Source of the DNA: a virus
Lineage: Duplodnaviria > Heunggongvirae > Uroviricota > Caudoviricetes
DNA: 7,631 nt
Direction: 5' to 3' (one strand)
IMG/VR virus record: IMGVR_UViG_2711768008_000002
Positions 1 through 6,000 of this stretch are shown one piece after another. Made by a program: the position numbers. Position 1 is the first letter of the stretch, and each line of letters begins with the position of its first letter.

Positions 1-3000
1 AGGGACAGCTGATAGAAACAGAAGCCACTGGAGCACCTCAAAAACACCATCATACACTAAATCAGTAAGTTGGCAGCATCACCTCATTCGTCTGTTCCTT
101 AAATCTTCCAGGAAATTTCTGCATTGCCGTCAGCATCACCGGCACCTGTGAATTCAGCGTTGGTCAGCACCACGTTTTTGCCACTGACTGACGTGGACAT
201 GAATCCACCCAGCGGCACTTTGATGGATTCATCAGTGGAGACGACAACGTATACCGGATCGCCTTTTTTGATAGTGCTGGCATCAAAATCAGAACCGAGA
301 TTAACGGTCACGTAGCCACGCTTCATGGCGTCGCCCGGGAAGTTCTTGCCTGTTCCCACCTGGCGAACCATGTCCGGCTGCGACGTGGTCGGATAAGGGC
401 GCACGTAGATCCCCTTCACCTTGTCTGCGGTATCACCATCTGCCAGCGGCACGAAAAAACCGTCATCATCGTATTTACCAGCCAGGCCATAGGCAGCGAA
501 GGCGTTATCGGATTTAAGGACCACCGGTTCGACGGTTAAGTCCTGCGGGCGAGAGACAGCCCCGGCAATGCCAACAGGCATCCGGTACAGAAATACATTA
601 TTCATTTTTTACCCTTTACGGTTTGCCCAGAATTCAGCGTTTTGTTTGTTCAGGGAAGCGATACTGGTCATGCCCATGTTTAGGCGCTGTGCATCGCCGG
701 TGGTGGCGCGGGTGTTTCGCCCTTTGGCAACCTCAGACACGGCATTAAACGCCATGTCGACCGATTGTTTCGGTAATTTGCGGATATCCGCATCACCGAC
801 TATCTGGCGAACCAGCGTTTTGTCAGCAGAAGCCAGAACCTCGCGTTTGAACGCGGTCGGTTTCATCTTACGGCTCAGATCGATACCCGGAACGATAACT
901 TCGGCACGCCAGGCTGAGTCACCAGTAATCGTGGTTTCCTCTTCATCGTCCTCGCCGTCACCGGTCGGATTATCGTCAGGCTTATTATCGTTATCGCCCG
1001 TGGCATTTCTTTCCAGCTTAGCCAGCAGGGCTTTCAGTAATGTTTTGAGGTCATCATCACTGTCGCCGGTTGGATCTCCGCCCATCTCTGGTGCTTTGTC
1101 CGGTAGTGGTTGCTGCGGGGACAGGTTGATGTTGAGATTAACGCCCTGCGGCAAATCCCCCTCATCTCCTGTAACCGATGCGGGAGCCGACTCCACCAGT
1201 TCGTTCATGGTGTCGGCATCTCCTGTCTTGATGGCCGCACGCATGCGGTTCCACCAGTTTTTCTTTTGATTTGCCATTGTGTCTCTGTCTCCAATTGCAC
1301 AACGATTTCCGGCTCTGCCTTTAGGGACAAGAGCCACATGGTTTCCGGTAATATCGACCTGCTCGGCTTTACCTGGCTCGGTCTGCTCGTACTCCGCGTC
1401 ATAGCCGCACGACACTTCGCGCAGGCCATCTTCGATAAGCTGAATGGCGCTTTCGTCTTTGACGATAAGGTCAGCCAGCATCAAATCAGACTGCTCACCC
1501 GTCCCGCGCCGGACATTCTGGAGGTGCCCGACAGCAAGCTCTTTCCAGTTCTCGGGATTTACCAGCCGCACATTCCCGTTTTCATCTTCAGGATGCAGGA
1601 TCGTGATGCTCATCCCTTCGAATGAGGCAAGCGTGGCCGGATGGAATACCTGCTCAGGAGAACGCGTGACGACTATTTCACCGAACTTATCGGGTTTCAG
1701 TTTTGGCAGGTCATCAGCACCATAGAGCTGCTTACCTGTTCGTCCTATCGGCACGTCTTTGCACAGCAACGAGCCGTCAGCCAGGCGGTATCGGGTTTCC
1801 CCGAGCCTGGTCTCAAAAAAGTATTTCATGGGTTATGCTGCCCTTTTCATTGCGAATGGAACGCGAACAAACACGATCTCTTTATAGCAGCGGCAGTTTG
1901 GCAGCTCGCCCGCGTGGCCGGTCATGCCGTCCAAAGTTGGAGGTGAATCCCAGCGGACGAATTTACCTTTCATGTGATCGTGGGAATCTCGGACATCGCC
2001 ATCATCGGCTGTACGCCAAATATAACCATCCGAGCCAATAGCTATCGCTCGGGCCATATCCAGCGCGCCCGTTGCTCTTCCCAGTTCCGTTCGGGCAATC
2101 AGATCGGCCCTAGACTTAGCAACATCGCCGGTAGATGCAATCTCTTTAGCAAACTGCTCCGCCCGACCACCGGTGACAACAGCCTCTATCGCTTTGTTCT
2201 GGATGTCGTACACCCTGTCTGCGGCCTCGAGAGGCAGAGATTTGATGTACTTGACCTGTTCGGCGATGATGGATTGCATCACCTGGCCCACAGGAGCGCT
2301 TTCCACAAGATTGCGGAGCTCGCGACTGATGTTCTTGCTGTGTTGCCGCCAAACTTTCTCGTTCTGCCGGGTTAGGTCCGCAGTAAAGTTTTCCGCGACC
2401 TTTGTCGCCCAGGGGGTGATGATTTCACTGTAACGCTCCAGCGCCGCAATAATTTCCGTGATACTGTCATTTGAACCATCGTAGCGACCATTTACGATGT
2501 CTCCGACCGCCCTCGCTATCCTGCGTAGGCTGGTTCGATACCGGATTTCCGCCTGACGGCTCCTGCGGTTCGTCATCAGGTTCGCCGATGCCGGGCGGCG
2601 CTTCATCTTCGGCATTCTCGATGTCCTCGTCGGTAATGGATGCCCCGATGCCGGTTACGTCAGAATTTTCTCGCAAATCAGTCATAGCGGCTTTCAGTGT
2701 CATCAGACCATCACCCAGCGCCGTACTGATTGCGTTGGTGGTGTTTAACGCCACCGTTGAGCGATCGACATCAGACATTTGCCAGAGCGGGTTAAACTCA
2801 AACGTGAAATCGTCCGGCAGCGGCTTGCCAAGTTCCGAACGATGCATGATGTCCAGTATCCGCCGCACCGGAAGACGTAAACGCCTCTCCTGCAACGAAC
2901 TGATGCGATCGTAATAGTTGGCAAGGTCTGCATCACCGGTAGAAAATCCTTTCGGGGACTGTCCGAACAACCGCACCAGTGGGATACCAACAGCGCCACT

Positions 3001-6000
3001 AATCTGTTCTACAAACTGCGAAAGGATGTCATCCAGACCACTGAAGCTGTACTGATGGGTTTCAAACTTATCCCGCGAGTCCATGAGCGTCATGCCTTCA
3101 TTACTCTGGAACTGTCGAATCAGGTCGATATTCTTCAGCAACGCTTCATACGCAGGACCACCAAGTGCGATAAGCTCGCGTAGCTTCTCCACGCTGTAGG
3201 TACGCAAATGCGCCTTGTAGACCAGCTGCGCCGCGCCGACAGTAGCGCTGTCGAACGCGGTAAGACGATCCCAGATACGCTCTACAACCGACATTCCCCA
3301 TTCGTTCTCGGTCATCTTCTGCTGAAATGGCAACGTGACGCCATCAAAGCGAATCAGGCGACTGTGATGAATGCGCCAGGCAGGAATTCCCGTTGCTGTG
3401 GTCACCACATCGTAAAACTCAGGTTTACCCAGGTCCGGCCCCATATCTTTAATGCGGCGGGTCAGTGCCGGGTCGACCATCCAGCGGTCGAGCGGGAGAA
3501 TCCCCTTAAACTTGCCCTTACCGATGGTTTCGGGTCGCAGCGGGGTCATTGGTGCCTACCCCTCAATCATGATGAAACCCACCGCGCCGCCGTAGAGGCG
3601 CGACCATTTCAGCACGTCATTCAGCGCATCCCAGATTTGCAACTCATCCAGTTGTGATTCGAGAATGCCACGATCTTTTGCATCAATTTCCGAAGTGATG
3701 CGAATGCCTTTGCGGGTCATATCATCCGGGATAGCATCGACTGCTTCGCCGATGATCTAGGATGAACGATAGGACCATTCCACCAGCATGCGGTTACGAC
3801 TGGTGAAATTAGCCCGGTAGGTGGATGCTGAGTGCTGGTTAGGTGTCTGCATCCCTACGCGGGCAATAAAATTCTCATAACCATCAGCTGTGGCCTGCAC
3901 AGTTCGCCGCAGGGCTTGTTTGTTTCGTGCCATCAGGCCTGTCTCCCCAGCTGTTCCCAGATATCCAGCGATGTATCGATTGGCGCGAAGGCCATAATGA
4001 ATGCATCAGCAACGTTTGGTGACGGTATCTCGCGTTTTGCGAGGTCTTTTTTACTTTCGACCATCACACGTCCGTTACGGTCGAAATCACGATGAGGTGT
4101 TGTCAGTTCCAGTTTCAGCTTTTCAAGCAACGGACAACGAGAATCTATGCTGATCAGCTCATCCACAGGATACTGTTCTCCGTTGTTAATGGCGTTAAAC
4201 GTATTTCTGAAACGGTCAGCCACCAGCCACCATGCCTGAGCCTTAAGATTTGCGAAAAAGTCTTTGTTGGGGATGCCGTTGTACTCGTCATCTGGCTCAT
4301 GCACACCAGCACCGGCGTTAAACCTCTGGTAATTCACACGTCGCGCGTATGCGTTCTCGCTCTTCCGGTCAGCGTTAATTTCAGAGAATTTAGCACCGGC
4401 AGACGCACCAACACCGATAGAGTCGTAAACAATATCTGCTTCACGCTCCAGCGCCGCCTGATAAGTACGCTGGCAGCTCTTCAGTAATTCATCTTCTTTG
4501 GCCTTCCATTCGTCGGCCCAGAAAACAACGGATCCGTGACGGTAAACGTTAGCGCACTTATCTGTACCACTGTCAGCCACGTCAAAGCCAATACGCTTTC
4601 TTCCACTGGGTTCGAAATTTAACGTTTTGTGCGCATCCACTGCGGCTTCTATCCAAGACAGTTTGATGATTGCCGCATCATCATCAGACTCCGGAACGCC
4701 CTCATACACATGTTTAAAACCATCCGGATCACGGCGTCGCGCCGCGTCGATAACCTTAAGCATGGTGTCAGACAGAAACGGATTTTCGTCATAGTTAATT
4801 TTGCGGATGAGAGTGCCTTCGGGCGGATCAACAACGAAGTTGCGCCAGACGAAATCAGTAACAAGTCCGGGGTTGAATATGAACCAGCATTCCGAACCCT
4901 CTTTACGGATCGTTGGCTCCAGAATTTTCCACTGGTATTCCGTCAGTGCGTGGGCTTCTTCCAGCCACAACACATCGATCCCCTCCAGTGACTTAATTTC
5001 TTCGATGTTGCGCCATAATCCATAAAAAACAAATTCCGAGCCAGTAACCCGGTTAATGATTTTGTTGTTCAGAATACGGAAACGGTGCCGCAGACCAAAC
5101 CTGTCTATCTGAATTTTGAGCAGGGTATACACCGACTCTTCGATTTTATTCTGGATCTGACGGGCACAACAAAAACGCAGGGTGTATTTATTCGACAGAA
5201 ATATGGCAATGCCAGCGGCATCCCATGATTTTGACGATGACCGACCACCATAAAGCACTTTGTTACGTGCCCGCATAGTCCAGAAACTACGTAAAGCCGG
5301 ATTCAGCGTCGGTTTGGATGTCAGAGTAGAAGTCATTGAGGTCACGCTCTCCATTGCCATCATCAATACCTGCATCACGGCGAAGACGATCAGCCTCCAG
5401 AGACACCTTATCAGTGGCGGCCTTGCGGTAGGCTGTATCAGCAAATATTTTTCCTACCGTCGCAAGCGTGCCAACGATGGACTCAATACGAACTGTATTG
5501 CGCATCATTGCTTTCTCGGCGGCGCTGATATTTTCAATCAGCATCTTCCTTTCCTGGTCCCCATTAGCATCTTCCAGCGACACCAACCACCGACCAATAT
5601 TCTCTGCAGCGACAAGGTTGTTAGCACGAAGGCGAAATAATTCGTCCTCGAGCGTCAACGCTTTAGCGTCCTCTATCACCTCATCTTTGAGCAGAAGGCG
5701 ACGGGCATAACCACCGTGTTTTAATGCCTGCTGGTTACCGGGTTGGAATGGGTTAGTCGGGGGATCGGTACGCATTCCGCGTATCGGTTTCGTATCCGGT
5801 GTAGATTCTGTTTTTAGTTGCGTACTTTTTTGTGTAAGGCCAGTAATGGCAGGCTTTCTGCTGGTACGCACTTTCCTTTTTTGCGTACCATTTTTGCAAA
5901 CCTGCGTACCGCCACTGCGTGCCCAACCAAGCTTTTTGGCCCTCTTCCTGATAGCCCCTTCTGTAACGCCGTATTTCTCGCCTATATCACGGAGGCTAAG

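Follow-up and report, generated by a model that had tools for sequence, protein, structure and literature searches.

We analysed a portal gene interrupted by two in-frame amber (TAG) codons in a 7,631-base stretch of DNA from a virus of the class Caudoviricetes (IMG/VR record IMGVR_UViG_2711768008_000002), the whole of which is referred to here as the window. The gene lies at 2467..3933 on the minus strand, spans 488 codons and belongs to family PF06381 (Phage_portal_3, DUF1073). We give a probability of about 0.93 to its loss by routine pseudogenisation, in which two ordinary G:C>A:T nonsense mutations would have arisen in a prophage remnant of Shigella sonnei bounded by insertion sequences (ISs). 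The evidence comes from intact relatives with sense codons at both sites, from the recurrence of the same two stops in S. sonnei genomes, and from the state of the element itself.

The portal frame and its ancestral codons

Translated on the complementary strand, 3933..2467 comprises 488 sense positions and a terminal TGA, with internal stops at exactly two codons, 59 and 126. Both were read directly in the sequence as TAG, codon 59 in the complement of 3757..3759 and codon 126 in that of 3556..3558, in agreement with the preliminary description of this DNA, which had reported two TAGs in an otherwise open frame of 488 codons. The portal ATG and the TGA of the terminase large subunit gene share a single base, the A (TGATG), and a mechanical list of open reading frames (ORFs) cuts the portal frame into ORFs of 58, 54 and 360 amino acids. 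The alternative that the portal truly begins at 3549, downstream of unrelated sequence, fails: homologues align from residue 1, and the 54-residue middle fragment scores 40 bits against the PF06381 hidden Markov model, so that 3556..3933 belongs to the portal.

The identity of the gene is supported at several levels. Against PF06381 (cutoff 33.8 bits) the ancestral protein scores 355 bits and the 360-residue fragment of the window 274 bits, and TIGR01555, the HI1409 family, matches with 255 bits (cutoff 196). Solved portal dodecamers are homologous to the window portal, namely those of Pam3 (8hds, E=2e-37) and E217 gp19 (8fvh, E=1e-14) together with 9jlf and 9l01, and the alignment with 8hds keeps both Trp59 and Gln126. 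The gene also occupies the expected portal position, directly 3' of the terminase large subunit and 5' of the head morphogenesis genes. What it lacks is an uninterrupted full-length reading frame, with TAG at 59 and 126. Judged from these sequence comparisons, it is a genuine portal gene by descent that is now a pseudogene. A homologous DUF1073 portal in NZ_CP148474.1 carries the RefSeq label 'anti-CBASS protein Acb1 family protein'; this looks like an artefact of annotation transfer, the family being that of portals by Pfam, by homology to PDB entries and by gene order.

Relatives were found by megablast against complete E. coli genomes, and phage records were compared as well. The E. coli prophages of FDAARGOS_943, FDAARGOS_944 and VL40 are 99.8-99.9% identical to the window at the DNA level over 84..7545, and many more match at approximately 96%. 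Phage records matching the head module are those of vB_EcoM-689R2 (94.5% identical over 84..3986), Citrobacter phage Omnitron, Salmonella phage SEN34 and Hafnia phage yong1. Among intact relatives, the FDAARGOS_944 prophage stands closest: it differs by 10 mismatches and no gaps in 7014 aligned bases, with two further differences at 7098 and 7099 past the end of the alignment, and it encodes an uninterrupted 488-residue DUF1073 portal. There, the base at 3758 is C, giving TGG (Trp59), and the base at 3558 is G, giving CAG (Gln126). Protein alignment shows Trp59, Gln126 and Ala308 in all five homologues compared, down to 85% identity, including those of SEN34 and yong1, both isolated as viable phages. 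The two TAG sites therefore fall on a conserved tryptophan and a conserved glutamine of portal homologues, with TGG and CAG as the codons in all of those compared. The four more distant phages or prophages among them likewise have an unbroken portal of 488 residues.

Outgroup comparison allowed the differences to be polarised. The alleles derived on the side of the window are those at 3758, 3558 and 3011, and all three are G:C>A:T transitions. Amber codon 59 corresponds to G>A on the coding strand (C>T at 3758 on the plus strand of the window) in ancestral TGG, amber codon 126 to C>T on the coding strand (G>A at 3558 on the plus strand) in ancestral CAG, and the third S. sonnei-derived change of the portal, GCA>GTA at 3011 in the minus-strand gene, replaces Ala308 with valine. 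The differences at 622, 4045 and 5055 are changes on the side of the E. coli relative, while at 5593 the two outgroups disagree and the direction is ambiguous. By this comparison, each TAG is one G:C>A:T transition away from its sense codon, TGG for Trp59 and CAG for Gln126.

An exact-protein look-up with the 360-residue ORF led to ten finished or near-finished chromosomes of S. sonnei, all of which have both TAGs. They include HE616528.1 (S. sonnei 53G, lineage II) and CP019689 (S. sonnei 75/02, lineage IIIc; PMC5447701). Compared with most of the ten, the window shows one mismatch in 7101 bases, at 7023; it is a segment of S. sonnei chromosome. Public assemblies hold 2576 blocks with the 360-residue ORF and 2737 with the 58-residue N-terminal ORF, mostly on contigs of 5-10 kb. 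In every distinct context shown, the 58-residue ORF precedes a C-terminal portal fragment, which indicates that the two stops co-occur; this fragment is 360 residues long in these contexts, except in one where it is 337, and the 54-residue middle ORF is listed in four of the six. Single-TAG intermediates, sought through the look-up with the 58-residue fragment, were not found, all distinct contexts returned having a C-terminal fragment called. A search for the double-TAG haplotype (28 nt round each TAG with a free spacer) in a set of one genome per species gave no matches; S. sonnei is evidently unrepresented in that set, so that the result is uninformative on other species. Taken together, the sequences imply that both TAGs are real, vertically inherited and fixed across the S. 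sonnei sampled.

The base at 7023, a G>A change that converts Pro99 of Rz to serine, is the only one at which the window is unlike the other S. sonnei chromosomes examined. It is likewise a G:C>A:T transition, and is a strain-specific single-nucleotide polymorphism.

A prophage remnant bounded by insertion sequences

The left boundary of the remnant is the terminal 83 bases of IS1 (1..83), which are 100% identical to a multi-copy sequence; 4963 of 5426 E. coli genomes have it annotated as 'IS1-like element IS1A family transposase'. Directly past this point, the chromosomes of S. sonnei carry InsA/InsB-type genes. Homology to the FDAARGOS_944 locus begins at position 84 of the window, which corresponds to 3001 of the locus, and the capsid coding sequence there runs over 2063..3004 on the minus strand. 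IS1 thus adjoins the start codon (ATG) of the gene for the major capsid protein (DUF2184), and homology to the intact prophage begins one base past that ATG. All that is left of the capsid gene in the window is a trace at 84..98 on the minus strand, made up of the ATG in the complement of 85..87 and one further base, together with the spacer between the capsid and gp24 genes. No part of positions 1..3000 of the FDAARGOS_944 locus, which hold the capsid, head-completion and neck genes, is present in the 21-kb locus of S. sonnei 53G. Past IS1, the S. sonnei sequence continues into chromosomal genes for a lactonase, a LysR regulator and an aconitase-family protein, and no capsid or tail genes occur in the 7.6 kb past IS1.

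The right boundary of the window is formed by the terminal 86 bases of IS2 (7546..7631), which lie in the 3' end of the holin gene and equal the multi-copy sequence found directly upstream of the 'IS3-like element IS2 family transposase' coding sequence. IS2 is inserted approximately 22 bases into the holin 3' end, and IS3-family ORFs of 121 and 301 amino acids adjoin it in the S. sonnei loci. The interval between the Q-like gene and the holin in S. sonnei holds IS110-, IS3- and IS2-type genes, IS2 being the one proximal to the holin. Intact relatives have a cluster of four tRNA genes in this interval (Gly or Val, Thr, Arg, and Ile/Met-CAT), at 11623..11933 of the FDAARGOS_944 locus and at 11235..11542 of the locus of a second intact relative, and S. 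sonnei 53G keeps one tRNA of this cluster, that with the CAT anticodon.

The element is a remnant unable to form a capsid or a tail, whatever the state of its portal. With its IS lesions and without capsid and tail genes, it was therefore not inactivated by the portal stops alone. Among the explanations offered in the preliminary description was a recent inactivation that had made the prophage defective. The gene is indeed inactivated and the prophage defective, but the event was neither recent nor due to the stops alone, as there is also an IS1-associated deletion of capsid and tail genes and an IS2 in the lysis cassette. Similarly, the statement that every other structural gene is intact holds for those wholly inside the window, which are without internal stops, but not for the capsid gene, which is cut at the IS1 junction.

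The locus has been catalogued before. The matching segment of CP019689 (3470417-3491499), which has one mismatch to the window, falls within the prophage region 75/02pp10 (3461614-3492646), for which Salmonella phage SEN34 was the suggested homologue and 'intact' the PHAST label (PMC5447701, Table 3). Regions similar to 75/02pp10 were reported in the remaining complete S. sonnei genomes (PMC5447701). The remnant is in this sense an ordinary, already catalogued prophage region.

The form of the record also deserves comment. The window extends over 7631 bases from an IS1 end to an IS2 end, and most assemblies with the portal fragments have them on a contig of 5-10 kb; it has the look of one entire short-read contig that ends where IS copies were collapsed. 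Its 323 N at 7102..7424 occupy a stretch that measures 611 bases in finished S. sonnei chromosomes and 615 in the E. coli relative, and so fall 288 short of the S. sonnei length. This suggests a scaffold gap or a masking step that changed the length, rather than masking in place. Because the run is too short, positions beyond 7101 no longer line up with those of real genomes.

Origin of the two amber codons

The preliminary description held that two stops of one type in one gene were unusual and that a decaying gene should also show frameshifts. To put figures on the first point, all single-base changes of the ancestral portal gene were enumerated. With any substitution allowed there are 156 routes to a nonsense codon, 78 of them to TAG (50%), 48 to TAA and 30 to TGA; with G:C>A:T changes only there are 49 routes, of which 28 lead to TAG (57%), 17 to TGA and 4 to TAA. 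TAG dominates the G:C>A:T routes because the ancestral gene has 17 CAG and 11 TGG codons against only 4 CAA and 6 CGA. Two nonsense hits at random would then both give TAG with a probability of 0.25 when every substitution is allowed, or 0.33 when only G:C>A:T changes are, so that a matching pair is unremarkable where TAG is the commonest nonsense outcome. Of the possible G:C>A:T changes in the portal, 6.2% create a stop. The absence of frameshifts is equally unsurprising, given that the 7-kb comparison with the nearest relative holds approximately 12 substitutions and no indels. Spontaneous mutation in bacteria is biased towards G:C>A:T, and in a gene rich in CAG and TGG two like stops are no sign of recoding or of suppression.

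In the account we favour, the portal pseudogene resides in a fixed, IS-bounded S. sonnei remnant that has Salmonella phage SEN34 as a relative. TGG at Trp59 and CAG at Gln126 each became TAG by a G:C>A:T transition, the two arising independently and spontaneously on this account, and a third transition of this kind led to Ala308Val. Both ambers would be read as stops, and both would be TAG since this is the commonest stop reachable from the portal codons. As no virions can come from the element, no selection would keep the portal, and nonsense changes would be free to drift to fixation. The neutrality of the portal changes is thus the presumed part of this account; the ancestral codons, the types of mutation, fixation in S. 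sonnei, the missing capsid and tail genes and the expected frequencies of stop types are shown. S. sonnei is noted for genome decay in small populations with IS-rich genomes. On this account the locus would be a standard illustration of how Shigella loses unselected prophages by reductive decay, through IS expansion and nonsense mutations, and would carry little biological weight.

Three other origins would make the TAGs either artefactual or readable, and the evidence turns against each. A sequencing or assembly error, with sense codons at both sites in reality, might be suspected in a window that resembles a short-read contig, flanked by IS ends and containing a run of N, but the same TAGs occur in ten independently sequenced S. 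sonnei chromosomes and the ORF fragments in more than 2,500 assembly blocks, which excludes it for practical purposes and leaves it well under a one-in-a-hundred chance. Recoding of TAG as a sense codon in late genes, as in code-15-type phages, has the two in-frame TAGs in its favour and nothing further. It is contradicted by relatives that are 99.86% identical and have ordinary sense codons at both sites, by the two different amino acids, Trp and Gln, for which TAG would have to stand in the one gene affected, by a host that is an enterobacterium with the standard code, and by the use of TAG as a genuine terminator of two genes of the same element, encoding the terminase-small-like protein and Rz. 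The latter two genes end in TAG, as had been described, with an in-frame TAA no more than eight codons beyond each. We regard recoding as excluded, its probability being practically nil. A phage of the sus type, in which an amber-suppressor tRNA of the host reads both TAGs to give a working portal, is very improbable. Both stops are indeed amber and a Gln-inserting suppressor would restore Gln126 exactly, but codon 59 was a Trp that is strictly conserved out to a cyanophage portal, the terminase-small-like gene and Rz terminate at TAG, and with the capsid and tail genes absent there would be no particle for a restored portal to join. The window contains no tRNA genes, and a CUA anticodon is likewise missing from the tRNAs of the eight flanking loci examined, six from S. 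sonnei and two from E. coli prophages, which extend to as much as 21 kb. The suggestion of a suppressor host thus gains no support, and in an element that lacks its capsid gene suppression would achieve nothing.

Selection is the remaining candidate, either for loss of the portal or for retention of the 360-residue C-terminal fragment in some function, and it draws on the one observation that weighs against simple decay. All three S. sonnei-derived changes that could be polarised within the 6-kb structural block fall inside the portal (1.47 kb), and two of the three create stops; taken alone, each of these aspects looks non-random, at roughly p~0.01-0.02. The hint of selection comes from these three substitutions. 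The 360-residue ORF also has an ATG at 3549 with a Shine-Dalgarno-like GAGGGG 9 nt upstream. Against this, the excess is gone once the whole remnant of approximately 10 kb is counted, where some 12-14 changes are candidates for derived ones, several of them located in the Q, holin and Rz/lysozyme regions; polarisation outside the structural block is rough, relying on one 84%-identical Klebsiella phage or on one intact relative locus. By a rough estimate, three changes in the portal with two of them nonsense are within chance over the whole remnant (P~0.1-0.2). The clustering is discounted because of this background and because the window was picked post hoc for its stops. Since S. sonnei is clonal, one would expect the 360-residue fragment to be identical from assembly to assembly, which is silent on constraint, and no trigger system or phenotype has been identified. 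We therefore regard selected inactivation or neofunctionalisation as improbable, and give slightly less credence still to its specific form, in which the portal was knocked out as the trigger of a portal-sensing defence or for toxicity during assembly, or a re-initiated 360-residue fragment was co-opted.

Other genes of the window and known systems

The remaining head genes, on the minus strand, follow the capsid trace. A gp24-type head cement or decoration protein of 168 amino acids is encoded at 99..605, a DUF2213 (Pa193_gp24-type) head protein of 406 amino acids at 609..1829 and a Mu F-like head morphogenesis protein at 1833..2576, all intact. The start annotated for the last of these, a RefSeq-style call, lies within the portal 3' end, so that 110 nt (2467..2576) are shared in another frame; the SEN34 annotation, like other gene callers, places the start further downstream and has no overlap. 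The long overlap is probably a matter of start-site calling and not of biology. Beyond the portal, and on the same strand, lie the intact genes of a PBSX-family terminase large subunit of 467 amino acids (3933..5336) and of the terminase-small-like protein of 254 amino acids (5287..6051), whose homologue is annotated as a terminase small subunit in two of the relatives found and which ends in the TAG mentioned above.

Between the packaging and lysis modules, a DedA/VTT-domain membrane protein of 170 amino acids with a TTG start is encoded on the plus strand (6246..6758). The gene is found in the intact E. coli relatives too, and looks like a cargo ('moron') gene of the prophage. Of the lysis module, on the minus strand, the C-terminal part of the Rz-type protein is encoded at 6847..7101; the gene ends in TAG, and its remainder enters the run of N (7102..7424), which takes the place of the 5' part of Rz and of the greater part of the lysozyme gene. 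The interval 7425..7545, which corresponds to 10630..10750 of the FDAARGOS_944 locus, holds the lysozyme 5' end, with its start at 7523, and the final 23 or so bases of the holin gene.

In their kind, the two lesions are those of classical amber (sus) phage mutants, CAG>TAG and TGG>TAG by G:C>A:T changes in an essential morphogenesis gene. The classical ambers are conditional mutants of complete phages, selected in the laboratory on suppressor hosts, whereas the window has a natural fixed allele in an element incapable of forming particles, with no suppressor in evidence. Among natural relatives, the E. coli prophages and vB_EcoM-689R2 share the gene order of the window over the shared stretch, with the lysis genes, DedA, the small and large terminase subunits, portal, the Mu F-like gene, DUF2213 and gp24. 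Unlike the window, those that are annotated (FDAARGOS_944, VL40 and vB_EcoM-689R2) have an uninterrupted 488-residue portal and a capsid gene further on; head-completion and neck genes past the capsid are seen in the two E. coli loci only. The closest known counterpart is 75/02pp10 of S. sonnei 75/02, which is the same locus as the window and shows how automated labels can mislead: PHAST called it intact (PMC5447701), whereas here it proves to be a remnant without capsid or tail genes, bounded by IS1 and IS2 and with two nonsense codons in its portal gene.

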